A stretch of DNA of 64,000 bases from Candidatus Aenigmatarchaeota archaeon (GTDB lineage Archaea > Aenigmatarchaeota > Aenigmatarchaeia > QMZP01 > QMZT01), in assembly GCA_963726265.1 (NCBI GenBank), contig CAVSBQ010000002.1:640001-704000 (forward strand). The letters are read 5' to 3'. A program made the translations under genes and the position numbers. How positions within the stretch are numbered: the stretch's first letter is position 1; each line of letters starts with the position of its first letter. Positions 2,949 through 22,147 of the stretch are shown here, in pieces. A model generated the notes under the pieces. The model was not told the DNA's origin, searched no databases, and was given only the letters and a program-made list of their open reading frames with translations.

Positions 2949-5783
2949 TTATTTTTCACTTTTAAACTTATCTATATCGAGCTTACCCTGAGCTAGCCTT
3001 CCCCTTCCGCCGCCCGAGCCGCAGCACTTTTTGCAGAGGGTTTTCACTTTTTCGGATATGTCTGTGCGTTCGCTCATGCCGACCACGTCGCCGTTTTTAT
3101 TTATCAGGATTACTGTCAGCTCAGGGTGCCCAGAAACAATGGAATCGGAAAGCTTTATCATCTCATTCCTGTCCATGTCGACAATTTCGAATATCTCGTT
3201 ATTTCTCGCCCTTTTCAAGAAATTTTCCAATTCAGAGCCAGCCTTCTCACTTGACAATTTTTCCAACTCCTTTTTCAGGTTTTTCCACAGCTCAAAGACA
3301 ACATTGCATGCTTCCTTCATGCTTTTGGCGCTTCTTTTTTTTGGTACCATTCTCAATTTTTTATTGCAGGCATCTATTTCACCCGTGAATTTTTTCACGG
3401 TTTTGCCGACCTGTTCCACCGGCACAGAGAAGCACTCCGCACATTCCCTCAGCTGCCTGGACGTATTGTTGTCCGGCCTGAAGGCAGCAAACCTTCCCAA
3501 CTCTCTGGCAATATCATCAAGCATGACACTTTCCTTGTCTGATATCTTGTTGGCTTCCTCGCCGGCAGTGAATTCTATCCTGTCGATGCCGTCCTGGATT
3601 CTGGTCGTTTTCAGTATCTTTATCCTTCCGACTTCTCTGGTGCTGTTCAGATGCGTTCCGCCGCATGCTTCGACATCAATGCCATGGATATTGACTATCC
3701 TCAGAAGCCTGCCCGGGACCGCCCCGCCCTGATAAATTCTCATGCCGAACCTTTTTTCAGCCTCGTTTCTCGGAATAAGAAGCTTTTCGACTTTAATGCC
3801 GCTTTCGACCATTTTGTTGGCCGTCTCCTCTATCTTCTTTACGTCCTCGGCTGTCAGGGGCTGATAGTGAGTTATGTCAAGGTGCGACTTCTCCTCGGTT
3901 TTCTTGGCCCCGGCCTGGTTTATGTGGTTGCCGAGGATTTTTTTCGCGGCTGCGTTCAGTATGTGTGTTGCCGTGTGCTGCTGGGAGAGCTTGAATCTTC
4001 TTGCCTGGTTTATTTTGCACGCCACTTCGTCACCTGCTTTAAGGCCGTGTTTTTTGTCAAGTTTGTGCACGATTATGCCTCCCTGTTTCAGGACTGCCGT
4101 AACGTCATGGCCATTTATAGTGCCAATGTCATGCAGCTGCCCCCCAGATGTGGGGTAGAATGCTGTCCGGTCAAGAATGGCATACTCGCCCAGCACCCTG
4201 AGGATTTTCGCGTGGAAATCGGCAACCCTGTAGTCATCGTAATACAGAATCTCCGTATCTGGAACTCCGTCAAGCGGCAGTCTTTTGCCAGCGCCGGTTT
4301 CGGCAACCTGCGTCGTTTTTTCATGCAGCTCCGATACCCTGGAGTAAAAATCATCAGGTATCTTTATTTTCTTGCCGCGCCTTTGGAGTTCGTCCCTTAT
4401 CATTTCCGGAGGGATGCCGTGGCTGTCATAAAGTTTAAGGAGTCTTTTTTCATCGATGCCTTCCTTCATCAGCTTGCCCACAATCCTTGCCGAATTCGTC
4501 CGCGTGGTTTCATATTTCCTTTCCTCAACGCCGATTATTTTCATGACGTCTTCAAGATTTTCTGTCAGTTCCGGGAAAATGGGCCTGAGATGGGCGGCAT
4601 GCAGTTCACATATCTTCGGCAGTTCTATGCTCCATCCGTATTTGTCTTTGAACATCATGGCCCTTCTTGCCAGCATCCTGAGGTTGTAGCCGCCGCCCAC
4701 GTTGCTCGGCAGGCCGCCGTCGGCCAAAGCAAAAAGCAGGCTCCTCATGTGCTCCGCTATCGAATAAATGCCGGAAAGCGGCATTATGAAATTTTTGAGT
4801 TCGTTAACGTCGGTGCCAACCCTTGCCGCGACAAGCCTCCAGGCTTTCTCCACGTTTTCAATCTCATCCAAATTCAGCAGCCCGGCATGGGGTATGTATT
4901 TTTTCATCAGCTGCCGGTCTATCTTGATGCCGGTTTTCGACAGGAGTTTTTCGATTACGGCCGGGAAGGTCGCATCGTAGATGGTTTCGCATCCCTGGGA
5001 GAACCACGCATTTCTTTCCTGCCCCATGCCCATGTCGAGCACCTTTATGTCAAGTTCCTTGTTGCCGGAAGGCGTTTGCTCATAAAGCATGTAAACCTGG
5101 TTTCCGAGCTCGCAGCCGCGCGAAAAGAATTCCATACACGGCCCGAAATTCCCTCCGCCTGCCCAGGCATCCTCGTGGAATATTATGTCATCCCTCGCAA
5201 GGCCAAGGCCCTTGCTGAGCCAAACGTAAATATCCCTGAATATCCTGTTCTGGTCCCAGGCTTCAGGCTTTACGAACATGTGCTGGCCTATCATGACGAA
5301 ACCCGTGTTGTGCGACTGCGTGATGCCAACGTTGTCTATGTCATTGAACCTCAGGCAAAACTGCGGGATGACTAGGGGATTTGCGGGCGGTTCGACCTCG
5401 CCTGATATCACATATGGCTGGAATGCCGCTATTGACGCATTTGTATATTCCACCGTTGGATTCCACCTCGCGACTACAGGATAGCGTTTTATCGGTGTGT
5501 AACCAAGGCCTTTGAACATCCTAGAAAATTCCTGCCATACCTCGACATAACCAAGTTTTCTTTTGGCAGGAGTGTTGCCGATGAATGAGAAGCCTTCACC
5601 GCTGCATATGGGATCGCCGCATACCTTTCTTTCGGCGTCCGTTGACCAGAAGGGTTTTTTGCATCTGGCGCATATCTTTCTGGCAAAACCCTCTTCTATA
5701 AGAACTGAGGTTGCATAATATTTTTCAGGCTTCGACCAGAACTTCGGCTTGAACTCCTTTTTGATTTCCTTATCCGGCTTCAT
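2949..5783 (-). CDS. alaS: Alanyl-tRNA synthetase
   Basis: Archaeal AlaRS N-terminal Zn ribbon, LDMGMGQER, editing motifs HTATH and CGGTH, C-terminal GGG motif. Confidence 0.97.
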   Translation of the reverse strand: MKPDKEIKKEFKPKFWSKPEKYYATSVLIEEGFARKICARCKKPFWSTDAERKVCGDPICSGEGFSFIGNTPAKRKLGYVEVWQEFSRMFKGLGYTPIKRYPVVARWNPTVEYTNASIAAFQPYVISGEVEPPANPLVIPQFCLRFNDIDNVGITQSHNTGFVMIGQHMFVKPEAWDQNRIFRDIYVWLSKGLGLARDDIIFHEDAWAGGGNFGPCMEFFSRGCELGNQVYMLYEQTPSGNKELDIKVLDMGMGQERNAWFSQGCETIYDATFPAVIEKLLSKTGIKIDRQLMKKYIPHAGLLNLDEIENVEKAWRLVAARVGTDVNELKNFIMPLSGIYSIAEHMRSLLFALADGGLPSNVGGGYNLRMLARRAMMFKDKYGWSIELPKICELHAAHLRPIFPELTENLEDVMKIIGVEERKYETTRTNSARIVGKLMKEGIDEKRLLKLYDSHGIPPEMIRDELQRRGKKIKIPDDFYSRVSELHEKTTQVAETGAGKRLPLDGVPDTEILYYDDYRVADFHAKILRVLGEYAILDRTAFYPTSGGQLHDIGTINGHDVTAVLKQGGIIVHKLDKKHGLKAGDEVACKINQARRFKLSQQHTATHILNAAAKKILGNHINQAGAKKTEEKSHLDITHYQPLTAEDVKKIEETANKMVESGIKVEKLLIPRNEAEKRFGMRIYQGGAVPGRLLRIVNIHGIDVEACGGTHLNSTREVGRIKILKTTRIQDGIDRIEFTAGEEANKISDKESVMLDDIARELGRFAAFRPDNNTSRQLRECAECFSVPVEQVGKTVKKFTGEIDACNKKLRMVPKKRSAKSMKEACNVVFELWKNLKKELEKLSSEKAGSELENFLKRARNNEIFEIVDMDRNEMIKLSDSIVSGHPELTVILINKNGDVVGMSERTDISEKVKTLCKKCCGSGGGRGRLAQGKLDIDKFKSEK

Positions 5784-11938: not shown

Positions 11939-12769
11939 GTGGCATTTATAAAAGTAAGCCTTGGCTCCTTTGTCGACACGCAACGACAGGTAACCGACAT
12001 ATCATCAAAGAGGCTCGTTACCATTGAAGAAAATTCAAGGCTTCTGGATGTTTTAAGCCTCCTTTTTTCAGAAGGGGTCAGAAAAATCCCGATAATTGAT
12101 AAGGCGGGCAACCTTAAAGGCATCGTGTCATCCATAGACATACTCAGCCTGCTTGGCGGCGGCGACAAACATGAAATTTTCAGGAAAAACATGGGGAGCA
12201 TGGAACTAAAGACGGACAAATTCGCCACAAGACAAGTAAAGACGATACATTTCAGAACGAGCATAAAGAAGGCGCTGGAAACATTCAAGACGGAAAGGAG
12301 CGGCATGTATCCCTTGACTGATTCGAGGAAGCTGATATCCGTAGTCTCTGAATGGGATTTCGTAAAACTGATCGACAGGCCGGTGGGGATAAAGATAGGT
12401 GAAATCATGGTCGAACGGCCGCTTTTCGTTCAAAAGAAGCACACTACGTATGAAGCTGCAAAAATGATGTGCAGGGGCGGCTTCAGGCGCCTGCCTGTAG
12501 TGGAGGAGAACATACTGCTGGGAGTGATAACACCTACCGACATACTTTCCCACGTCAAAAACAGCAGAATCTGGGGCAGCCTTGTTGCGGACAAAACGCG
12601 CGTGGAGCATGTTATGAAAAAGGAAGTGGTCACAGTCAGCGCGGATGATGATTTGTTTACTGCGGCCAGCATCATGAAAGGCAGGCACATTGGCGGCTTG
12701 CCCGTGGTGGATGATGAAGAGCTTGTCGGCATAGTGACCGAAAGGGATATAGTGGATGTATTAGCATGA
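11939..12769 (+). CDS. CBS-domain protein (4 CBS)
   Basis: Repeated RRLPVV/GIVT-type CBS motifs; GGTGA RBS before GTG. Confidence 0.9.
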   Translation: MAFIKVSLGSFVDTQRQVTDISSKRLVTIEENSRLLDVLSLLFSEGVRKIPIIDKAGNLKGIVSSIDILSLLGGGDKHEIFRKNMGSMELKTDKFATRQVKTIHFRTSIKKALETFKTERSGMYPLTDSRKLISVVSEWDFVKLIDRPVGIKIGEIMVERPLFVQKKHTTYEAAKMMCRGGFRRLPVVEENILLGVITPTDILSHVKNSRIWGSLVADKTRVEHVMKKEVVTVSADDDLFTAASIMKGRHIGGLPVVDDEELVGIVTERDIVDVLA

Positions 12770-13227
12770 AAAACAGCAGAATAGATGAAGAGCAGCTCCA
12801 GAACATCATAAAAGAGCTGGCCGAGGCCCTGGTCATAGTCGAAGGCAAAAACGACGAAAAAGCTTTAAAAAGCCTCGGCCTGAAAGATATTATTGCGATC
12901 AAGGGGACGCCGCTCTATAAGGTGGCCGAGGTCGCATTGAGAACAAAAAAAGAAGTCGTGATATTGACTGATTTCGATAAAAAAGGCAGGGAGATGGAAA
13001 AAAAGCTGAGAACCCTGCTTCAAAGGCACGGGAAAATCCCGAATTCGAAATTAAGGTGTAAGGTAATGTCACTGGAAAAAAACAGGATAGAGGATCTGTG
13101 GGGCATTGATACCCACGGGACCATTTCATTCAGGGAGGATGATTTTTATGTCAAAACTAGCACCGACTTCGATAAAATACGTGGTAAAAGCAGAGATAGA
13201 TGCCCAAGGGGTAATAGAAAAACCTGA
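12766..13227 (+). CDS. Small TOPRIM-domain protein (RNase M5-like)
   Basis: IVEGKND and LTDFDKKG motifs. Confidence 0.88.
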   Translation: MKNSRIDEEQLQNIIKELAEALVIVEGKNDEKALKSLGLKDIIAIKGTPLYKVAEVALRTKKEVVILTDFDKKGREMEKKLRTLLQRHGKIPNSKLRCKVMSLEKNRIEDLWGIDTHGTISFREDDFYVKTSTDFDKIRGKSRDRCPRGNRKT

Positions 13228-14428
13228 TGTCATAGGCGCAATATTCGGACAGACAGAAGGCTTGCTTGGTTCTGATCTTGACCTGAGAGAGCTTCAGAGA
13301 ACAGGTAGAATAGGCAGGATAGAAGTCAACATAAATTCTGAAAGGGGCAAATCGCACGGAGAGGTTATAATACCATCGTCGCTTGATTCCGCCGAGACTG
13401 CCCTAATAGCAGCTACGCTGGAGACGATAGAGAGAGTAGGACCATGCATAGCAAAAATAATCCTCAAGTCCGTCGAGGACACGCGTGAACTGAAGAGAAA
13501 GTTCGTCATAGACAAGGCCAAAATCATCCTGAGAGAACTTCTTGAAAAAGGCATACCGGACACGTCAAAAATAGCAGAGGAAATAAAACAAGAAATAAAG
13601 ACCTACGAAATAACCACATATCAAGGCCTCCCATGCGGTCCGGGCATACTGGAATCCGAAGAAACAATCATAGTGGAGGGAAGGGCAGATGTCATAAACC
13701 TCGTGAGATACGGCATAAAGAATGTCATTGCCATTGAAGGCAGTTCCATACCGCAGCAGATAATAAACCTGTCAAGGCAGAAAACAACGACCGCCTTCTT
13801 TGACGGCGACAGGGGAGGAACCCTCAACCTGAAAAGCCTCATGGAAACAACGGACCTGGATTTCGTCGCGATCGCGCCCGAAGGCAAAGAAGTCGAGGAG
13901 CTTTCGAAAAAAGAAGTGTTCAAGGCGCTCAGGGACAAGGTAGCAGCTTCCCAGTTCAGGACGGAAGCCAGGGGAGACAGGCAGAATAACAATGACAGAA
14001 GGGAAAGGCCGGTCGAAAGGCCAGTAGAAAGGCCCGTCGAAAAGCTAAATGAGAGACCCCCGGAAAGGCTAGGCGCCGAACAGCCTAGAGATGTCGAATT
14101 CAGACAGCAGCAGCAAATGCCGCCCAGAAAAATACCAATAACAGATGAGCAGAAAAGGATATTCAAAAAAACACTGGAAGAACTGATAGGCACAAGGGCG
14201 GCATGCATATTCGATTCGTCTTTCAACATACTGGGCAAAGTCCCGACCAAGGAGCTGCATAACACTCTCAAAACTCTGGATAACCCGTATGCAGTCATCT
14301 TTGACGGGCGGGTTGACTACAAACTGGACATAATAGCGAGAAGAAAATCGGTCAAATTTTTGATAGGCATGGAGAAAGATAACATAAAGTCACCCGTCAA
14401 CATCCTGTCAAAAGAGGACATAGAATAA
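13148..14428 (+). CDS. dnaG: Archaeal DnaG (primase-like, exosome-associated)
   Basis: GAIFGQTEGLLG, VEGRADV, DGDRGG; GGAGG RBS. Confidence 0.96.
   Translation: MSKLAPTSIKYVVKAEIDAQGVIEKPDVIGAIFGQTEGLLGSDLDLRELQRTGRIGRIEVNINSERGKSHGEVIIPSSLDSAETALIAATLETIERVGPCIAKIILKSVEDTRELKRKFVIDKAKIILRELLEKGIPDTSKIAEEIKQEIKTYEITTYQGLPCGPGILESEETIIVEGRADVINLVRYGIKNVIAIEGSSIPQQIINLSRQKTTTAFFDGDRGGTLNLKSLMETTDLDFVAIAPEGKEVEELSKKEVFKALRDKVAASQFRTEARGDRQNNNDRRERPVERPVERPVEKLNERPPERLGAEQPRDVEFRQQQQMPPRKIPITDEQKRIFKKTLEELIGTRAACIFDSSFNILGKVPTKELHNTLKTLDNPYAVIFDGRVDYKLDIIARRKSVKFLIGMEKDNIKSPVNILSKEDIE
14003..14043 (+). repeat. 12-bp tandem repeat encoding (ERPV)x3 in the DnaG linker
   Basis: gaaaggccggtc gaaaggccagta gaaaggcccgtc. 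Confidence 0.8.
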
Positions 14429-14486: not shown

Positions 14487-15518
14487 ATGGAAGATTTATT
14501 GAAAAAGCTCGTAATGTCTCCTTCAATTTCAGGCTATGAAAAAAACATAAGAGACACCATGGCTAAGGAATTGAAGCCGTATGTTGATGAAATAAGAATC
14601 GACAAAATAGGCAACCTTATATGCAGGAAGGGTTCCGGTTCCCCTAAAATAATGCTTACCGCACATATGGATGAGCTTGGCCTGATGGTAAAATACATAG
14701 ATGACAGCGGTTTCATAAGATTCGAGACCATAGGAGGCTGGGATCCGAAAATTTTGCTCGCGCAAAAATTCAAAATACATGGCTCAAGCGGCCCTGTCGT
14801 AGGAGTGGTCGGCGCCAAGCCGATCCACCTTCAGGAAAAGGAAGATGTTAAGAATCCCGTTAAGCTGACGGAGATGTTCATTGACATAGGGGCGAAAGAC
14901 AGAAAAGAAGCTGAGAAGATGGGAATAAGGATAGGAGATTATATAACAAATTACGGCGAATTCGACAAACTGGGGCCATCGAAGGTAACAGCTTACGGCT
15001 TTGACGACAGAATAGGATGCCTGGTGATGATAGAAGCCATGAAAAACCTCAAGAAGGTCAAGGGAACTGTATATGCCATCGGGACCGTGAAGGAGGAAAT
15101 AGGCCTAATAGGAATACGGGGGCCGGTTTTCAGCATAAACCCGGACATTGTAATATCACTTGATGTCACAACGTCTGGTGATACCCCTGAACTGAAACCG
15201 TATGATGCCACTTCAAAATTAGGCGGAGGACCAGTTCTTATGATAAAGGATGCAATAAGTATAATACAAACTGAAATGAAGGACTGGGTCGAGGATGTTT
15301 CCAGAAAAAACAAGATAAAATTACAGTTTGACGTAGTTTCCGGTGGCGCTACGGATGCATCGGTGACACCCATGATAAGGGAAGGAGTGCCGTCAATCTC
15401 GATATTGACACCTTCACGTTATCTACACACGCCGGTTGAAGTTGCGGATATGAATGACGTGAAAGAGTCCGTGAAGCTTATAATAGAACTTATTAAGTCG
15501 GCGCATGAACGTTTCTGA
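14487..15518 (+). CDS. M42 family aminopeptidase (TET-like)
   Basis: AHMDE, DDRIG, KEEIG, GGATD, RYLHTP. Confidence 0.94.
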   Translation: MEDLLKKLVMSPSISGYEKNIRDTMAKELKPYVDEIRIDKIGNLICRKGSGSPKIMLTAHMDELGLMVKYIDDSGFIRFETIGGWDPKILLAQKFKIHGSSGPVVGVVGAKPIHLQEKEDVKNPVKLTEMFIDIGAKDRKEAEKMGIRIGDYITNYGEFDKLGPSKVTAYGFDDRIGCLVMIEAMKNLKKVKGTVYAIGTVKEEIGLIGIRGPVFSINPDIVISLDVTTSGDTPELKPYDATSKLGGGPVLMIKDAISIIQTEMKDWVEDVSRKNKIKLQFDVVSGGATDASVTPMIREGVPSISILTPSRYLHTPVEVADMNDVKESVKLIIELIKSAHERF

Positions 15519-15524
15519 TAGTAT

Positions 15525-15917
15525 TCATGAATTTTCTATCAGTCTAACATTTCCACGCATAGGTATAACTTCCAGTTCACCCATATATATCTGCACATCT
15601 CCAACCACATTAATTGATTCTCCTATTTTTATAGCATTTGCATCAATATTTTTTGTTTCCAGCAGCCTTATGGTGTCTTCCCATAAAACAATTTTTATCT
15701 CTCCCGTGGCATCTTGAAGATTCATGAAAATATTACCATCATTTTCACGGATACTCTTCACGAACCCAGTTATATTCACGACCTTTCCAGCGAACGATTT
15801 GTCAATTTCACCTATGTTCACGTGAAGTGAAGATAGGTTGTATGTGACCAAATACAGCAGTATGAAACATACAAAAATACCCGCTACTGATAGTCTGGCC
15901 AGCTTTTTCTCATTCAT
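15525..15917 (-). CDS. Membrane-anchored OB-fold protein
   Basis: N-terminal TM helix; OB-fold pattern (LQDATGEIKIV, VVGDVQIYMGELE). Confidence 0.75.
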   Translation of the reverse strand: MNEKKLARLSVAGIFVCFILLYLVTYNLSSLHVNIGEIDKSFAGKVVNITGFVKSIRENDGNIFMNLQDATGEIKIVLWEDTIRLLETKNIDANAIKIGESINVVGDVQIYMGELEVIPMRGNVRLIENS

Positions 15918-15918
15918 A

Positions 15919-16461
15919 TTATCGCCCCATTTTCCAAACTGCTATATCGCTGTGAATCGGACCTCCGGGTGTCAGGATGCTTGATTTCAGTTTCACCTCG
16001 TTCACGTTCATTTCACCAAAGTTCACGTTTTCGCGATTCTTTATCAGCATTGACAGTGAATCCAGATTCTTTCCTGATTTAACCCTCGCTATGGTCATGT
16101 GGGATGATGTGCTATTTTCGCCAAACTTCACGTTTTCATTCACTTTATTCATGAGAATCTTCATTTTGGCTTCACCGTCTTTGATGCCAACCCAAAGCGT
16201 CCTTATAAAATGAGATTTACCGAAATAGCCGATACCGTACATGGCTATGTTAAAGGGACATTCATTTTCAATGAATGCAAGCGATTTTTTAATAATCTCC
16301 ACTTCACATTCCTTCACTTCGCCGATGAATTTAAGTGTGAAGTGCATTTGTGCCGGTTCCACCAGTTTTAAATCCGACTCTGTCGATACAAGTTCTCTCT
16401 GTAACCTGACAATGGCATCTTTAAGGCCTTCGTCAACATCTACGCATATGAAACATCTCAT
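15919..16461 (-). CDS. thpR: RNA 2',3'-cyclic phosphodiesterase (2H family)
   Basis: HFTLKF and HMTIAR motifs; SSILTPGGPIH. Confidence 0.92.
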   Translation of the reverse strand: MRCFICVDVDEGLKDAIVRLQRELVSTESDLKLVEPAQMHFTLKFIGEVKECEVEIIKKSLAFIENECPFNIAMYGIGYFGKSHFIRTLWVGIKDGEAKMKILMNKVNENVKFGENSTSSHMTIARVKSGKNLDSLSMLIKNRENVNFGEMNVNEVKLKSSILTPGGPIHSDIAVWKMGR

Positions 16462-16607
16462 ATGAAATATAAACAATTTCTATATAAATTGATTTCACAC
16501 CACTCATTTGAATCATATTCTTTCACATAACTTCACGAAAAGCATTTAAATATAATTATGAATTATATGAAAATATGAACAAGAATATGAACTTTGGTGA
16601 AGGATAC

Positions 16608-17672
16608 ATGAAGTTGTTTAACTGGAAGGACAATCCCTTCAACTTCAAGATAATGCCGAACCTTTTCGTCGGTTACCCCAGAGAGACAGAAAAACTGGCA
16701 AACAGCATACACAGCAACCACAAAATCTCCATCCTCATAGGCCCCACCGGCTCGGGAAAAACAACCTTTCTCAGATTCCTTGCAAAAACATTTGAAAAAA
16801 ACAGGAAAATTTTTTACCTATCCAAGCCACCGAACAACCCGGATGACTGGGTAAAAATATTCACGAACTTCATAGGCCCCGGAACGATTGGAAGATTGTT
16901 TTCACGCACGAAAAACGTGAACATATACAATCTGAGCGAATGGACAAACAGCAGGATGAAAAACAAAAAAATGATATTATTTGTCGATGAAAGCCATGAA
17001 GCAAGCACGGAAACGTTGGAATGGCTGAGAACTCTCGCAGACCAGATAGATAATCTTTCGGTGGTAATTGCGGGCCTGCCTGTTCTGGAGACAATGCTCG
17101 TGGACAAGCTTGAAACCTTCATGAGAAGATCGAACCTGAAAATCGAGCTCACAAGCCTGACAAAATCGGAGACAAGAGAACTTATCAAAAAGAGGATAGA
17201 ATGGGCAGGCGGCGAGGACATAAAACCCTTCACTTCGGAAACCGTGGAGCGCATATATGAAAAAACAGGCGGCTTCCCCAGGGAAGTCATAAGAATGTGC
17301 AACGACCTTGTGCAAAAGGCCATAGAAGAAAACATAACATCGATAGACATGGATTTCCTCGGCGATTCTGATTTTCTCATGCATGCTGCGCACAGGCACC
17401 ACCACAGGATCCCGCTCAGTTCGCTGGACTCCATGCCGTCGAAACAAAAAAATATTATTGAGATATTGTGGAAATACGGAGAACTTACTCCGGCCGAGAT
17501 AGTCGATAAAATGGACATGGATGATTACAAAAACAAGGATAATGCCATACGCTCCATAAATAACATCGTTAAAAGACTCGTTAAAGACGGCACCATCATA
17601 AGAAAGCGCAGAGGGAAAAGCTATCAGTATCTGCTTTCTGACAAAATGAGAACTTTAATGGTGCACGCATAA
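16608..17672 (+). CDS. AAA+ ATPase with C-terminal winged helix (ExeA/Cdc6-like architecture)
   Basis: GPTGSGKT, LFVDE, GGFPRE lid motif, C-terminal wHTH; GGTGA RBS favours start 16608 (alternative 16575). Confidence 0.85.
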   Translation: MKLFNWKDNPFNFKIMPNLFVGYPRETEKLANSIHSNHKISILIGPTGSGKTTFLRFLAKTFEKNRKIFYLSKPPNNPDDWVKIFTNFIGPGTIGRLFSRTKNVNIYNLSEWTNSRMKNKKMILFVDESHEASTETLEWLRTLADQIDNLSVVIAGLPVLETMLVDKLETFMRRSNLKIELTSLTKSETRELIKKRIEWAGGEDIKPFTSETVERIYEKTGGFPREVIRMCNDLVQKAIEENITSIDMDFLGDSDFLMHAAHRHHHRIPLSSLDSMPSKQKNIIEILWKYGELTPAEIVDKMDMDDYKNKDNAIRSINNIVKRLVKDGTIIRKRRGKSYQYLLSDKMRTLMVHA

Positions 17673-17724
17673 ATTTAAATAAGCTGCCCATATTATAAAT
17701 ATCATTATCGGGGGAGGGTTTTTT

Positions 17725-17988
17725 ATGGCGGAAGAAAGAGTGCGAAGCAGGGACCTTGTAGGCAAGATTCTGATTTCAGAGGAAAGCGGGAAGAAATTCG
17801 GCGTTGTTGGCGACCTTGATTACATAGTTGAATCCGGCGAGCTGATAAACCTGGTTCTCGTTCAGCCGACGAAACACGCAAGCGAACTTAACCTGCAGGA
17901 AGATGACAAAGGCAGGACGCTTGTCCCGTTCTCTGCAGTCAAGTCGGTCGGGGATTTCGTCATCGTATCCGAAAAGGATATAATCTAA
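17725..17988 (+). CDS. PRC-barrel protein (CdpB-like)
   Basis: 87 aa; GKKFGVVGDL and VPFSAVKSVGDFVIV. Confidence 0.88.
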   Translation: MAEERVRSRDLVGKILISEESGKKFGVVGDLDYIVESGELINLVLVQPTKHASELNLQEDDKGRTLVPFSAVKSVGDFVIVSEKDII

Positions 17989-18059
17989 AATACGCCCTTC
18001 CGATATTTTCTATATTTTTAGATATAGATTTAAATTTTGACCCAGTCAAATATATAATC

Positions 18060-18362
18060 ATGGCCGGCAAAGACTACTATAAGAAAACCATAAAAAACGT
18101 TATGCAGATATTCAGTCTGCTCAAAGAAGCCAATGCAAGAAACGAGCTTCTTACCGTATCAAAAATTTCAAAGCTTACGGGTCTGCACAAATGGACCGTA
18201 TCCCGGACTTTGGATTTGTATATGTCGCCTTATGTCGAAATAACAATTCCAGAAGGCTTCGATGACGTAGGACTCAGGATTAAATTCGTGCGCCTGAAAA
18301 ACAAAAACATGACAAGGGAGCAAGTGCTGAGGTTTCTGAATATCAGAAGTCTCACTTTTTAG
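18060..18362 (+). CDS. Small HTH protein
   Basis: [20 protein letters not shown] helix-turn-helix. Confidence 0.7.
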
Positions 18363-19326
18363 AGCCTTCTTCTACATCCCTCACGCCCTCGCCTAGGACC
18401 CTGAAAACTATTTCGCCCTCAGGCAGGTTTGGCGAGTCTATGAGCTTCGCTATCCTTTTGTCTTCCTTGGATTTCCTCAGATAAACTCTGTAGGTAGCTT
18501 GGTGGCCGACTATATGACCTCCTATGGGAGTGGTCGGGTCGCCGAATAGGACGTCGGGCCTTGACATGACCTGATTGGTCACGTAGATGGCAAGATTGTA
18601 GACGTCAGCAAGCCTCTGCAGCTTGTGCATGTGCCTGTTAAGCTTCTGCTGGCGGTCAGCAAGCGTTCCACGACCGGTGTAATCGGACCTGAAGGCCGAT
18701 GTGAGCGAATCGACCACTATAAGCTTGACGTTTTCCTTCTTGATGAGCTCTTCGGCCTTCTCGATGAGAATCACCTGATGGTCAGAGTTGTAAGCCCTCC
18801 CCACGAATATGTTTTCCATCACTTTATCCGGGTCAAGATCAAGACCTTCTGCCATCTGCTTTATCCTTTCAGGCCTGAATGTCTGCTCGGTATCTATGAA
18901 TATGACCTTTCCGTCCAGCCCGCCCCTTTCCCGTGGAAGCTGCACGGTGACCGAAAGCTGGTGGGCAAGCTGGGACTTGCCCGAGCCGTATGCGCCATGC
19001 ATTTCTGTTATTGCCTGAGTCTCGACGCCACCGCCAAGCAGTTTGTCCAGCTCTTTTGAGCACGTGGTTATTTTTCCCAGGCTTTCTCTTTTGATCATGA
19101 CGTCCTTCGCTGTTTCGAAACCCATCTTGAGCTTCTGTCTAGCTCCGGCTATTATTTTGTTTGCAGTATCAACGCCTATGCCCGTTGCCGCGACAAGCTC
19201 GCCGGCCGAAGCGGCAGCTATACCCATTAGATTATCATAACCGGCTTCTATGAATTTTTCAAGGGTTTTTTCACCGACTCCGGGAAGACTCTCTATATCC
19301 TTATTGACGTCCGTTTCTTTTGCCAT
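18352..19326 (-). CDS. radA: Recombinase RadA
   Basis: N-terminal Hh[24 protein letters not shown]. Confidence 0.98.
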
Positions 19327-19355: not shown

Positions 19356-20381
19356 TCATTTGGGTATTTTAATTTTCAATGCGTCTATTTTTGCGAGCAG
19401 GCTCTCGGATTCCTCCCTCGGTTTTATCTCTTCAGCGTCGTTTGCAACAATTTCCAGTTTTTCCGAGAACTGGTTTTTCTTCACTCTGCCTTTTATCATG
19501 AATTCCCTGCCAAGTTGTATATTTTCATAAATTTCCGTAAGCTTTCCGGTCTTGGCATTTTTCAGGTCCTTTGCGGCATCGCCGACAATCTTTTCGGCCA
19601 GCTCCCTGAAGAAAACGACGCGTATATTGCCGGTTCCGTCATCAAGAACACCGGAAACAACAAGATTGCGCTTCGGCTCGACCTGGCCGTGCTCCTTGCA
19701 TTTCCATACATTCCCATCATTCTCCAGCCGCGCCTCGCATTTGGGACACACGTCGTAGAAGGGAGTCCTTTCAAACACCTGAACAAGCGAGGCCCTGACC
19801 TCGCAGTATTCCTCCTCTTTCAGTTCGGAGATGTTTTTTGTCTTGAGTGAATCGAAACTGTCCTCCATCTCGCTTATTGCCGGCATTTCCTCATCCGATT
19901 TAGCCATCCTGCCGAACCTGCCAAGGTGTATTTCGATCTCGCCTCTCCCGTTCTCCTTGATATAGCCGTTCCTTATGCTTATCACGTCGCCGCTGTTTAC
20001 ATCCAGCTTGCTGATCCAGTCTATTTCGCTGTCCCAGAGCGGAAGCCTTAGCATCCCCGTTTCGTCGCCAAGCATGACATTAACAACACCTCTCGTTTTA
20101 CCGTCCCTTTCGAAATCCCTCCGGTTCGATATCCTGACAACCCTTCCCATGACATCAACCGATCGCATGCCTACGGTGACGTTTTTTATTTTCAGCCGGC
20201 GGTTGGGCACGTCTTTCACGAGGTTCACTCCGAGTTCCTTGCCGACAATGTAGGCAGCCCCTTCGGGCGAAACAAGGCCAGAGAGTTCCAGCAGCTTATC
20301 CTCTATTTTTTCATTTACTTCATGCTCGGCCAGGCCGGATGCCCTTGATATTTCCTTTACCATATCCTTGAATGAGAACAT
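19356..20381 (-). CDS. rpa: Replication protein A subunit (OB folds plus Zn finger)
   Basis: GDETG and DDGTG OB-fold motifs; CPKC...CKEH. Confidence 0.88.
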   Translation of the reverse strand: MFSFKDMVKEISRASGLAEHEVNEKIEDKLLELSGLVSPEGAAYIVGKELGVNLVKDVPNRRLKIKNVTVGMRSVDVMGRVVRISNRRDFERDGKTRGVVNVMLGDETGMLRLPLWDSEIDWISKLDVNSGDVISIRNGYIKENGRGEIEIHLGRFGRMAKSDEEMPAISEMEDSFDSLKTKNISELKEEEYCEVRASLVQVFERTPFYDVCPKCEARLENDGNVWKCKEHGQVEPKRNLVVSGVLDDGTGNIRVVFFRELAEKIVGDAAKDLKNAKTGKLTEIYENIQLGREFMIKGRVKKNQFSEKLEIVANDAEEIKPREESESLLAKIDALKIKIPK

Positions 20382-20457
20382 ACTAAACCCTGAGTAAAGA
20401 TTGAGAATTAAGTATAAAAGTTTATGTTTAAACGCCATTCTGCAGGTTTCTCGGATT

Positions 20458-22137
20458 TCAGTCAATGACCCTGAGACCAGTGTAGGATTGCAGGATTTTG
20501 GTCGCTTCCTTCGCCCTGGTCTTGAAAGGCGGGACGTCTTTCGTCACCCATTCGGTGATTATGGAAGGTTCCTTGTAGTAAAGGTTGATCAGCTTTGCAA
20601 CATCCTCGAAATTCGTCACCCCGAATTTCCTCATCCACTCGAGGATTTTCTCTCTGCTTCTCAGCTCCCTGAGCATTTCCTCATGCGTGACGCCCTTTTC
20701 AAAGGCCATTTTTTTCAGGACATATGACTCTTCTATGTTGGCCGAATAAGTGTCCGTCGAGGGGTTCCATGTAAAAACCTTTATGATATGCGCCGTCCCG
20801 GTCTTCGGATCCAGCGATTCTACCTCATCCAGTTCCTTTAGCCTCCTCGCAGACTTGCCCCTTTCCTTGGCGTGTATCATGACCACCACAAGGTCAAGCG
20901 TTTCAATAAGGGTCGGTGACAGTTCAATCGGCGGCATTTCCAGGCGCTTTATCACGTCCTCAACAGAGCCGGCGTGTATCGTCCCCATGGACGAGTGGCC
21001 GCTCGCCATGCCCTGGAACATAACATACGCTTCCTTCCCCCTCACCTCGCCGACTATGACGTAATCGGGATTCTGCCTGAATGACTCCTTCAGCAGCTCG
21101 AAGAGTGTGACCTCGCCATAGCGTCTCCCCCCGATTTCAGGCACGCCAAAGCCAACCCTCGAAACGCTCGGTATCCAGTTCTCATGCTGCAGGTTCAGCT
21201 CACGGGTGTCCTCTATGGAGACGATTTTGTCCTCCGGAGGGATGAACATGCTCATGACATTGAGGAATGTCGTCTTGCCGGTTGAAACGCCACCGCATAT
21301 GAGCGTCGATGCGCGCGATTCTACCATCAGCCAGAGGTATGCCATGATTTCGGACGATGCGGTGTTGAAGTTTATCACGTCTATCGGAGAAAACGGCTCG
21401 ACCCTGAACTTGCGTATCGAGAAGGTCGGGCCTTTCGTCGTCACGTCCTTTGCGAGCGTGGCCTGCACCCTCGAGCCGTCCGGCAGCGAGCCGTCGAGCA
21501 GGGGTTTCGCATAGGATATGTATCTGCCGCAGCGTTCAGACAGCTTTATCACGAAATTGTTAAGGTAGTCGCTGTCCTTGAATGATATGTTCGTTTCGAT
21601 GGAGCCGAATTTCCTGTGAACCACGAAAACCGGTATATCAAGGCCCGTGCAACCTATATCCTCGATATACGGGTCGTGCAGAAGGCCTTCTATATCGTTG
21701 AAGCCGACAAAATCCCTGTATATGAAATAGATCACCTTGATATACGTTTCATTCGGCAGCTTCATGTTTTCTTCCTCCAGGATTTTTTTGAGCTTCGCTT
21801 CAACGTATTCCATGACCCTGCCGCCGGCCTTTATCACAGAAAGCTCCACGTCAATCGTCTCAAGCAGGTCTTTCTTTATCACTTCAAGTATTTCATTTTC
21901 GCTTCTGGAAAGCACGGGCTCTATGACATCGTAAACGAGACCTTTCTTTTGCTGGTCCCATCTTATGTGTGCATAAACAAACGGCTCGATAAGAGGGTAT
22001 TTTATGTCCGTTTCAGTGGTTCTCTGAGATGAAGGGAAAACAACAAGGTTTTTGGGCTCTTTAATTTCGACATGGGGGTATTCCGTCTTCTTCCCCGCAT
22101 TTTCTATTCTTTTCCTCAAGGCTCCCCTAAAACCCAT
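20458..22137 (-). CDS. Type II/IV secretion ATPase (PilB/ArlI-like)
   Basis: GGVSTGKT, SIEDTRE, RQNPDYVIVGEVRG, GTIHA. Confidence 0.94.
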   Translation of the reverse strand: MGFRGALRKRIENAGKKTEYPHVEIKEPKNLVVFPSSQRTTETDIKYPLIEPFVYAHIRWDQQKKGLVYDVIEPVLSRSENEILEVIKKDLLETIDVELSVIKAGGRVMEYVEAKLKKILEEENMKLPNETYIKVIYFIYRDFVGFNDIEGLLHDPYIEDIGCTGLDIPVFVVHRKFGSIETNISFKDSDYLNNFVIKLSERCGRYISYAKPLLDGSLPDGSRVQATLAKDVTTKGPTFSIRKFRVEPFSPIDVINFNTASSEIMAYLWLMVESRASTLICGGVSTGKTTFLNVMSMFIPPEDKIVSIEDTRELNLQHENWIPSVSRVGFGVPEIGGRRYGEVTLFELLKESFRQNPDYVIVGEVRGKEAYVMFQGMASGHSSMGTIHAGSVEDVIKRLEMPPIELSPTLIETLDLVVVMIHAKERGKSARRLKELDEVESLDPKTGTAHIIKVFTWNPSTDTYSANIEESYVLKKMAFEKGVTHEEMLRELRSREKILEWMRKFGVTNFEDVAKLINLYYKEPSIITEWVTKDVPPFKTRAKEATKILQSYTGLRVID

Positions 22138-22147
22138 CAAAACACCG

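Follow-up and report, generated by a model that had tools for sequence, protein, structure and literature searches.

What is the function of an ATPase that is built like an archaeal initiator and is encoded between dnaG and radA in an aenigmarchaeal genome? The locus lies in a stretch of 64,000 nucleotides, hereafter the window (Candidatus Aenigmatarchaeota archaeon, assembly GCA_963726265.1, contig CAVSBQ010000002.1, positions 640,001 to 704,000). A sequence-only reading of this DNA had suggested a replication–division module made of the ATPase, a PRC-barrel gene and an orphan HTH gene, in which the ATPase, as an undescribed initiator or segregation protein, binds an adjacent pentamer array. 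Chromosome positioning and segregation are largely unknown outside a few model archaea, and the cell biology of DPANN has barely been studied. The features of the locus are as follows (window positions).

13106-14428: dnaG, 2.1 kb upstream of the ATPase gene
15525-15917, minus strand: OB-fold protein with a hydrophobic N-terminus (Pfam tRNA_anti-codon, E 8.4e-11); bears part of the array
15576-16612, no strand: GTGAA/TTCAC pentamer array, 18 TTCAC and 6 GTGAA up to 16597, plus five plus-strand ATGAA at 16558-16612
15919-16476, minus strand: LigT-type 2H phosphoesterase (Pfam LigT_PEase, E 1.5e-18); bears part of the array in its coding sequence
16545-16554, plus strand: TATA-like box tttaaatata, about 25 bp upstream of the ATG at 16575
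16575-17672, plus strand: AAA+ ATPase with ExeA/AAA_22-like core, lid and C-terminal winged helix; 365 aa, single copy in the genome
17725-17988, plus strand: PRC-barrel protein, CdpB/YlmC-like; 87 aa
18060-18362, plus strand: small winged-helix protein with an IclR-type HTH; 100 aa
18352-19326, minus strand: radA, convergent with the cassette
19356-20465, minus strand: rpa, convergent with the cassette
20458-22140: PilB-like (T2SSE/PilB3) ATPase, 2.8 kb from the ATPase gene

The gene order described earlier was found in the window: the PRC-barrel gene follows the ATPase gene, dnaG lies about 2 kb upstream, and the orphan HTH gene converges on radA and rpa, its end overlapping that of radA. 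The reading frame of the ATPase was also real, but its proposed start at 16608 is Met12 of a frame that begins at 16575. The 11 residues upstream of Met12 were conserved in close relatives, and distant relatives begin near Met12. The spacing of the TATA-like box to the ATG suggests a leaderless transcript. The Walker A motif (GPTGSGKTT), the Walker B motif (VDESHE), the GGFPRE lid (residues 233-238) and a C-terminal winged helix in the domain order of Orc1/Cdc6, all of which the sequence-only reading had claimed, were present in the motifs, the Pfam matches and the model. Pfam assigned AAA_22 (E 3.6e-13) to the core and a Penicillinase_R-type winged helix to residues 291-353 (E 2.9e-6). Among 50 sequences, K62, D138, R185 and P235 of the catalytic set were invariant, as were P21 and F22 of the N-terminal NPF motif, and E139 and R236 were at least 90% conserved. 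R185 is a probable arginine finger, and R236 of GGFPRE is a probable sensor 2. Judged by these domains, the ATPase represents an uncharacterized family of predicted DNA-binding proteins conserved in Aenigmatarchaeota, and the titles and abstracts found under Aenigmarchaeota/ExeA/winged helix/origin and COG3267/archaea contained nothing on it.

The family was placed by HMM scores and structural Z-scores instead of a tree against Cdc6, ExeA and TniB. The TIGR03015 (ExeA-like) profile matched residues 11-260 of the window ATPase with an E of 6.8e-23 (profile positions 2-257 of 269), and the alignment takes in both the PF motif near the N-terminus and the lid motif GGxPR, in line with the ExeA-like NPF N-terminus that had been noticed. 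The score was 81.4 bits against a cut-off of 324.5, which does not reach equivalog level. All 50 family members matched TIGR03015 (best 4.3e-27), and 14 of them also matched TIGR02928 (Orc1/Cdc6) weakly (best 2.2e-8). The window ATPase was absent among the seven matches of the genome to TIGR02928 at E <= 0.01 (cut-off 181.3 bits), Pfam found no Cdc6_C domain in it, and its ORC-CDC6-like match (22 bits) covered the P-loop only. A PDB sequence search gave only P-loop-level matches (best E 0.011). By sequence, the family is ExeA-like rather than Orc-like. The AlphaFold model of the ATPase (pLDDT 90.5), the structure prediction proposed as a check, showed the closest whole-chain similarity to Orc1/Cdc6 (Z 18.7-19.5): 7jgr_G, 2qby_A and 1w5s_A had Z-scores of 19.5 (322 residues aligned), 19.0 and 18.7, respectively, and the 10 best Foldseek matches were all ORC/Cdc6. 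The AAA+ module alone superposed closest on the ShCAST TnsC filament 7m99_A (Z 17.3, rmsd 3.7 A, 243 residues), and the MuB filament 8xvb_A and 7rzy reached Z-scores of 17.1 and 15.5, respectively.

The pentamer array that the ATPase was supposed to bind is real, though it lies outside the stretch that had been described. Its 24 GTGAA/TTCAC sites at 15576-16597 overlie the ATPase promoter and the reading frames of the OB-fold and LigT genes and form the densest kilobase of the 1.13-Mb genome, and the five ATGAA pentamers surround the ATPase start. The kilobase at C2:655751 contained 22 sites, the genome maximum, compared with a genome mean of 2.04 (sd 1.58). The window contained 10 matches to the pattern GTGAAN{4,7}GTGAA where 0.54 were expected, a count of at least 10 was reached by none of 100 shuffles, and eight of the 10 matches fell in 15459-16536. 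The pentamer array is far above chance. When the same-orientation spacings of 16 diverse loci were pooled, they peaked at 11 bp (111 pairs) and then at 21-22, 31, 41-42, 52 and 63 bp, a period of about 10.5 bp; the half-sites are direct and often paired as TTCACGTGAA. Phasing was clear only locally and in the pooled loci: local spacings of 9-13 bp were conserved in 15 loci of the window's family, and a long-range Fourier analysis gave a noisy signal for the 19 TTCAC sites of the window itself (best value 0.56, at 10.4 bp).

The two genes beneath the array have been recoded. In the OB-fold and LigT genes, Val-Lys/Asn was written with GTG in 9 of 10 cases, compared with 714 of 2040 genome-wide (P 5.6e-4), and [GSRC]-Glu was written as xGT-GAA in 6 of 12 cases, compared with 208 of 3960 genome-wide (P 1.6e-5). 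This indicates that their codon choice is bent towards the pentamer motif by selection at the DNA level. The window offers a rare case in which a long, putatively protein-bound array has been maintained through the recoding of two unrelated genes, and with it a system for the study of overlapping selection at the DNA and protein levels.

The array and the ATPase were followed through 201 sampled genomes of the phylum. The ATPase was found in 142 of them, mostly as a single copy that keeps its place on the chromosome from family to family while the proteins share about 40% identity, and the conserved neighborhood (LigT, PRC, radA and rpa) answers the earlier call for a synteny comparison; radA and rpa were conserved neighbors in 15 of 20 diverse loci. 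In 44 of 49 other loci, the DNA that precedes the ATPase gene (up to 1.35 kb) contained at least 12 sites. In four ATPase-bearing genomes, all 15 matches to GTGAAN{4,7}GTGAAN{4,7}GTGAA were at most about 1.5 kb away from the ATPase gene, whereas five genomes of an ATPase-lacking family had one match in total. In that family (f12), the ATPase occurred in 1 of 42 genomes, and the five loci examined read (dnaG-)LigT|PRC without the ATPase, the small winged-helix gene or the array; in family f15, it occurred in 0 of 9 genomes. The ATPase and the helically phased GTGAA array therefore travel together across the phylum and are jointly absent in the loci examined, which fits an array-binding protein. 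Some loci are poor in sites: L059 had 3 and L026 and L029 had 11 each, and in G003 (L041) the ATPase retained its conserved recognition helix without an array. No alternative phased motif was found in the GTGAA-poor loci L041, L059 and L054. The homologues of Nanopusillus, Nanobsidianus and YN1 had no GTGAA array and no PRC or winged-helix neighbor within 4 kb. A mild excess of AT-rich hexamers was seen at these nanoarchaeotal loci, whose genome is AT-rich.

Two winged helices could read the pentamers, that of the ATPase and that of the small protein. The model of the small protein (pLDDT 83.2) resembled only generic winged helices in the fold search (TFE-alpha, ArsR/SmtB, MarR and the Cdt1 C-terminal domain), none at E <= 0.001, and Pfam HTH_IclR was found in 8 of 19 members. 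In other families, the orthologous gene is on the opposite side of the array and immediately precedes the ATPase gene. The small winged-helix family is multi-copy, with three matches in this genome, matches in 184 of 201 genomes and, with weaker scores, in 40 of 42 f12 genomes, so the presence or absence of true orthologues is not cleanly readable from these counts. In G042 and G064, arrays persisted without a detectable small winged-helix orthologue, which points to the winged helix of the ATPase itself as the reader.

In this study, we believe with moderate confidence that the array and the ATPase, often with the small winged-helix protein, form an ATP-dependent, origin-proximal nucleoprotein complex that is partition-like and self-regulating and is not an initiator. 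The module would consist of two to three parts set between older neighbors, dnaG-OB-LigT on one side and PRC with radA-rpa on the other. The first part would be an array of GTGAA half-sites over 0.6-1 kb, and the second the AAA+ ATPase, which resembles ExeA, TnsC, MuB and Cdc6, ends in a winged helix of its own and has its promoter inside the array. In most families there would be a third part, the small IclR-type winged-helix protein, whose gene lies beyond the array. The winged helix of the ATPase would read the pentamers, and the ATP-bound protein would oligomerize along one face of the DNA through Walker A/B, R185 and R236. Each chromosome would thereby carry, about 20-30 kb from oriC, a single large nucleoprotein complex, which would repress the ATPase's own promoter and, chiefly, would mark or organize the origin-proximal region like a centromere or partition site. 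The module offers a testable DNA site and protein, namely a strictly phased array at one place in the genomes scanned and a near single-copy ATPase.

In plasmid partition loci (type II parC-ParR-ParM and type Ib), the centromere is built of iterons in helical phase that precede the par operon. Similarly, the short direct repeats studied here recur at about one helical turn and extend over the promoter of the neighboring NTPase gene, the locus also encodes a small DNA-binding protein, and the arrangement occurs once per replicon. Unlike par loci, however, the NTPase is an AAA+ protein and not ParA, ParM or TubZ, and the array is chromosomal and several times longer. TnsC, MuB and TniB share the AAA+ core fold with the model (7m99, 8xvb), which is a similarity of fold only; TnsC and MuB form ATP-dependent DNA filaments, a behavior that we propose for the ATPase of the module. 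Unlike them, the latter has its own winged helix, predicted to read sequence, and a dedicated array. If it polymerizes on the array, the repertoire of initiator-clade AAA+ proteins (Orc, DnaA, TnsC and MuB) would gain a new chromosomal task. We further speculated, as an unlikely extension, that the array and the ATPase constitute an AAA+-driven chromosomal centromere-like system, in which the ATPase polymerizes on about 30 phased GTGAA sites 20-30 kb from oriC, and thus a further class of partition or origin organizer beside ParA, ParM and TubZ; through the smaller GTGAA clusters in the ORB region, the ATPase could then couple origin firing or position to segregation and division in these very small cells.

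Another explanation, which we regard as possible but rather unlikely, is an ordinary transcription factor: the winged-helix ATPase or the small winged-helix protein would act as an ATP-sensing repressor or activator, and the array would be an oversized operator for the ATPase, LigT/OB and PRC genes. The C-terminal domain of the ATPase is similar to the BlaI/MecI/CopY repressors, and the TATA-like box is flanked by sites whose positions in the window's family, counted from the ATPase start, are about -20 to -53 and +22. Every locus has sites that overlap the ATPase promoter, so part of the pattern is explained by plain autoregulation. Elsewhere in this genome, chains of at least four sites were confined to two places, the intergenic region that bears the ORBs (C2:623697-623750) and a point 1.4 kb beyond it (C2:625166-625215); four chains were found in all, against 0.82 expected. 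We count these clusters for the partition-like complex, but the second, an intergenic, four-site phased mini-array, is also what a regulator might use. Such extra GTGAA clusters near cdc6 were present in this genus and in G064 and absent in G106 and G115. However, about 24-40 sites over 0.6-1 kb are far beyond the needs of a promoter, and in the window's family, which has no non-coding spacer, the sites have been preserved by recoding two genes up to 1 kb from the promoter. The AAA+ core with its intact, probably trans-acting arginine and its similarity to the filament-forming TnsC and MuB also argues against a simple regulator.

A second, non-canonical replication origin, with the array as an iteron field and the Orc-shaped ATPase as a dedicated initiator or helicase loader, appears improbable. 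Archaeal initiator genes typically adjoin their repeats, and the ATPase likewise has the AAA+ base, lid and C-terminal winged helix of Orc1/Cdc6 (Z 18-19.5), is encoded next to repeated sites at which it may bind, is origin-proximal, and lies between AT-rich flanks with dnaG, radA and rpa nearby. In contrast to Orc1/Cdc6, it falls outside TIGR02928 and lacks Cdc6_C, it is accompanied by phased 5-bp half-sites in numbers of about 24-40 instead of a few ORBs, and its repeats are GTGAA pentamers, not ORB or mini-ORB. The search for a canonical cdc6 with ORBs elsewhere in the genome, which the sequence-only reading had asked for, found a genuine Orc1/Cdc6 (TIGR02928, 431.5 bits) with ORB-like repeats 28-33 kb upstream of the module. 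These inverted repeats, called with the ORB consensus, lie at C2:623670-623842 (the arms are at 5670-5687 and 5825-5842 of L065), and cdc6 is preceded by another three ORB-like boxes. A role of the ATPase as main initiator is therefore unlikely. In addition, the ATPase was not found in 59 of 201 genomes, so it is dispensable in those lineages, whole families such as f12 and f15 among them, and the name initiator could not be kept. The array in the window also lies inside two expressed-looking genes, and the cumulative GC skew, with its maximum at 567 kb and a plateau to about 640 kb, is too coarse to separate oriC from the array. The distance between the ATPase and cdc6 was 19-26 kb in all four other genomes with both on one contig and is 28 kb here; this constancy favors an origin-proximal complex but may be inherited synteny without functional meaning.

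It is very improbable that the protein assembles a secretion or pilus machine in the manner of ExeA/GspA-type ATPases: ExeA/GspA and the XrtA/PEP-CTERM-associated ATPases (COG3267, TIGR03015, AAA_22) are the best sequence family, JGI names the protein 'type II secretory pathway predicted ATPase ExeA' and a T2SSE/PilB3 gene is near, but the score is far under the cut-off, a DNA-binding type of winged helix stands in place of the membrane/peptidoglycan-binding tail that ExeA carries, secretion partner genes are lacking, and the PilB gene as query was found in 0 of 20 diverse loci. Hardly more credible is a part or remnant of a mobile or defense element, such as a TnsC/TniB-like target selector or a BrxC/STAND-like defense ATPase, which the structural similarity to TnsC, MuB and BrxC (Z 15.5-17.3) and weak HMM matches to nSTAND and anti-phage families would favor, whereas the fixed, mostly single-copy position and the lack of a transposase, integrase or defense partner among the conserved neighbors (21 loci) oppose it.

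The PRC-barrel protein raises the question of division. Its closest solved relative was 8qzo_A (E 4.3e-6), whose C-terminal PRC domain the 87-aa protein matches, followed by 1pm3 (E 7e-4); the YlmC/YmxH family gave an E of 1.1e-5, below the cut-off. 8QZO is described as Archaeoglobus fulgidus CdpB2 (PMC13488343). The protein thus resembles the CdpB proteins (Haloferax CdpB1-3 and A. fulgidus CdpB2), and this genome encodes SepF and four FtsZ/tubulin-family proteins. PRC orthologues were near-universal and single copy (195 of 201 genomes), and the gene keeps its place beside LigT in a family without the ATPase and the array. It is therefore a conserved neighbor and not an obligate partner of the ATPase; their adjacency looks like an insertion into older synteny, and a replication–division module is not borne out. 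A complex prediction of the ATPase with the PRC protein, run without controls, gave a score of 0.00 (mark 0.32), which speaks neither for binding nor against it. The published neighborhoods of PRC genes include Cdc48, NrnA, Thg1, InfB, EngB and Pth2, and the passages that name these neighbors mention no ExeA-like ATPase (bioRxiv 10.1101/2023.03.28.534520). We believe that the PRC protein is probably a separate, CdpB-like core protein related to division, and the near-universal, single-copy gene lends itself well to tests of CdpB function beyond the haloarchaea. Sequencing runs that matched positions 15500-18400 of the window numbered 17, all of DNA type, and one of them contained at least half of the words.

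The elements named in the sequence-only reading (ATPase, PRC-barrel, HTH, radA, rpa, and dnaG) were all found in the window, and the genome holding it, assigned to the Aenigmatarchaeota through the names of homologues, is 1.13 Mb and 88% complete. The genes were arranged as follows.

Gene order around the ATPase (window positions)
Before the Toprim gene: CBS-domain gene
12766-13227: gene of a small stand-alone Toprim protein, overlapping the 5' end of dnaG by ~120 nt
13106-14428: dnaG
Between dnaG and the OB-fold gene: M42 peptidase
15525-15917, minus strand: OB-fold gene
15919-16476, minus strand: LigT
16575-17672, plus strand: ATPase
17725-17988, plus strand: PRC-barrel gene (PRC)
18060-18362, plus strand: small winged-helix (HTH) gene
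18352-19326, minus strand: radA
19356-20465, minus strand: rpa
20458-22140, minus strand: PilB-like ATPase

The ATPase gene stands, and the start previously placed at 16608 is Met12, not the first residue; the longer reading frame from 16575 is common to close relatives. The overlapping small Toprim/dnaG pair is kept in several other families, and within dnaG a 12-bp tandem repeat (14003-14042, 3.3 copies) gives rise to reiterated ERPV units that lie in a low-complexity insert of the protein. The OB-fold gene adjoins LigT throughout the phylum, and the hydrophobic N-terminus of its protein is probably membrane-anchoring.

The PRC gene lies directly 3' of the ATPase in 26/29 close loci. Of 20 loci from diverse families, 16 had PRC downstream on the same strand at up to 2.7 kb, 19 had it somewhere within 6 kb, and 15 had radA near the ATPase. 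PRC orthologues were present in 195 of the 201 sampled genomes of the phylum, including 42/42 of family f12 and 9/9 of family f15, and the ATPase was present in 142/201, being essentially absent from f12 (1/42) and f15 (0/9). Four of five f12 loci read dnaG, LigT (minus), PRC (plus), the fifth reads dnaG, PRC, and neither the ATPase, the small winged-helix gene, nor a motif cluster was found in any of them. A strict triple-site pattern of the pentamer matched 15 times in four ATPase-bearing genomes, always at the ATPase locus, did not match in a fifth (G106), and matched once across five f12 genomes. Because array and ATPase are both absent from the five f12 loci and the triple-site pattern is confined to the ATPase locus in those four genomes, the two come and go as a unit, inserted into an older dnaG-LigT-PRC neighbourhood; this clean joint absence with PRC kept is new here. 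PRC is a neighbour of the ATPase and not a dependent partner, so the replication-division cassette proposed earlier was rejected. A gene of ~185 aa resembling P-loop kinases lies between ATPase and PRC in several families (L040, L044, L049, and L056) and on the opposite strand in L050; it is not in that slot of the window. In the accessible part of the PRC-barrel paper, other neighbours are named for PRC genes (bioRxiv 10.1101/2023.03.28.534520).

The ATPase matched TIGR03015 (E 6.8e-23, residues 11-260, profile positions 2-257 of 269) with 81 bits, far under the 324.5 cut-off, and AAA_22 (E 3.6e-13), followed by a Penicillinase_R-type winged helix at residues 291-353. TIGR03015 was matched by 50/50 aligned relatives, and the Orc1/Cdc6 profile TIGR02928 by 14/50, weakly. 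The AlphaFold model (pLDDT 90.5) gave whole-chain matches to 7jgr_G, 2qby_A, and 1w5s_A with Z of 19.5, 19.0, and 18.7, respectively. Judged by sequence the protein is ExeA-like and by modelled shape Orc1/Cdc6-like; the sequence-only reading had noted the Orc1/Cdc6 domain order and an ExeA-like N-terminus. For the AAA+ module alone, the best superpositions were on two filament formers, TnsC (7m99, Z 17.3, 243 residues aligned at rmsd 3.7) and MuB (8xvb, Z 17.1). K62, D138, R185, and P235 were invariant across 50 sequences, and E139 and R236 were at least 90% conserved. These residues are compatible with an active AAA+ ATPase that would hydrolyse ATP as an oligomer, with R185 as the putative arginine finger and R236 as the putative sensor 2, judging by where they lie in the model. 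This large family, single-copy in this genome, had 611 matches at E <= 0.001, and 74 representative clusters were counted at E <= 1e-30; a branch at 34% identity is found in Nanopusillus and Nanobsidianus, and the next tier of relatives is TPR-zinc-ribbon-AAA_22 proteins. In three genomes (G113:C15, G150:C12, and G156:C3) the match was split, with AAA+ and winged-helix stretches ~150 nt apart though in a single long reading frame, so the linker may carry an insertion.

The pentamer array claimed near the ATPase is present, upstream of the coordinates given for the cassette. It comprises 18 TTCAC and 6 GTGAA at 15576-16597, with many spacings of 9-13 bp, besides five ATGAA at 16558-16612. Its kilobase is the densest of the genome (22 sites versus a mean of 2.04, sd 1.58). 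GTGAAN{4,7}GTGAA occurred 10 times in the window versus 0.54 expected, a count reached in 0/100 shuffles, and 8 of the 10 fall in 15459-16536. In the stretch preceding the ATPase, scanned for up to 1.35 kb, at least 12 sites were counted in 44/49 other loci; L026 and L029 had 11 each, L041 had 2, L059 had 3, and L048, also below 12, had only 144 nt of upstream sequence to scan. Same-orientation spacings in 16 diverse loci had their highest peak at 11 bp, with 111 pairs, and further peaks at 21-22, 31, 41-42, 52, and 63 bp, and palindromic TTCACGTGAA units were common there. This period of ~10.5 bp puts the sites on one helix face. No publication on the ATPase family or the array was found in literature listings and abstracts.

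A small winged-helix family member was present in 14/21 loci, with an IclR-type HTH in 8/19 members and a generic winged-helix fold in the model and fold search; the family is multi-copy, and its phyletic pattern is not clean. In several families its gene lies directly upstream of array and ATPase, and in the window's family its place is now on the far side of PRC. G042 and G064 keep their arrays although neither yielded an orthologue, which favours the winged helix of the ATPase itself as the predicted reader of the pentamers. The recognition-helix region of the ATPase is conserved throughout Aenigmatarchaeota and differs in the Nanopusillus branch, which lacks the array, but it is also conserved in G003, which lacks the array too.

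In most families the array occupies a gap of 0.5-0.75 kb without a conserved gene, from the small winged-helix gene to the ATPase gene. In the window's family the corresponding gap is just ~100 bp, and the sites sit within LigT and OB. For Val-Lys/Asn in these two genes, GTG was used in 9/10 versus 714/2040 genome-wide (P 5.6e-4), and for [GSRC]-Glu, xGT-GAA in 6/12 versus 208/3960 (P 1.6e-5); Val-Lys/Asn dipeptides were 4.4-fold enriched (P 1.5e-4). The coding sequence is thus bent towards the motif; an array laid over genes with measurable recoding is new here. Our preferred reading, at roughly even confidence, is that the ATPase would form an ATP-dependent, DNA-bound oligomer on this one long array, which is helically phased and lies near the origin. 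The arrangement compares best with a partition centromere that also serves as operator for the NTPase gene of its locus. The array's size and its upkeep through the recoding of two genes point to something beyond a promoter operator; pure autoregulation, with the array as operator only, is less likely. That array and ATPase truly serve segregation, as the analogy would have it, is unlikely.

The canonical cdc6 with ORBs that was to be sought elsewhere in the genome was found: Orc1/Cdc6 lies at C2:627804-628895 of the same contig (431.5 bits), and the ATPase is 28 kb away. Some 4 kb past the 3' end of cdc6, the intergenic region C2:623619-623868 (5619-5868 of L065, the region around cdc6) holds inverted repeats with arms at L065 5670-5687 and 5825-5842 flanking an AT-rich stretch, with another three boxes, related to these, upstream of cdc6 at C2:628959-629150 (L065 10959-11150); all are ORB-like by comparison with the ORB consensus. 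Both regions together are the probable canonical oriC, and a second origin at the array is improbable. The ATPase as initiator, as formerly suggested, is unlikely, since Orc1/Cdc6 and an origin are present, its sequence is ExeA-like, and whole families have no ATPase. The ATPase-cdc6 distance was 19-26 kb in 4/4 other genomes with both on one contig. Within C2:623619-623868, 5-7 GTGAA/TTCAC sites are packed into 100 bp. Chains of at least four sites numbered four genome-wide versus 0.82 expected: two are the array, one lies within the ORB-bearing region (623697-623750), and one is intergenic at C2:625166-625215, where four GTGAA sites form two pairs, each with a 10-bp spacing. A small GTGAA cluster beside cdc6 was absent from G106 and G115 and present in G064 and the same-genus G073, in the latter at the place matching C2:625166-625215. 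The conserved distance and the smaller clusters in the ORB region are new here. The 1.1-Mb genome also carries four FtsZ/tubulin-family genes (G000:C2:42813, 134085, 936218, and 957942) and one SepF gene (C2:352880).
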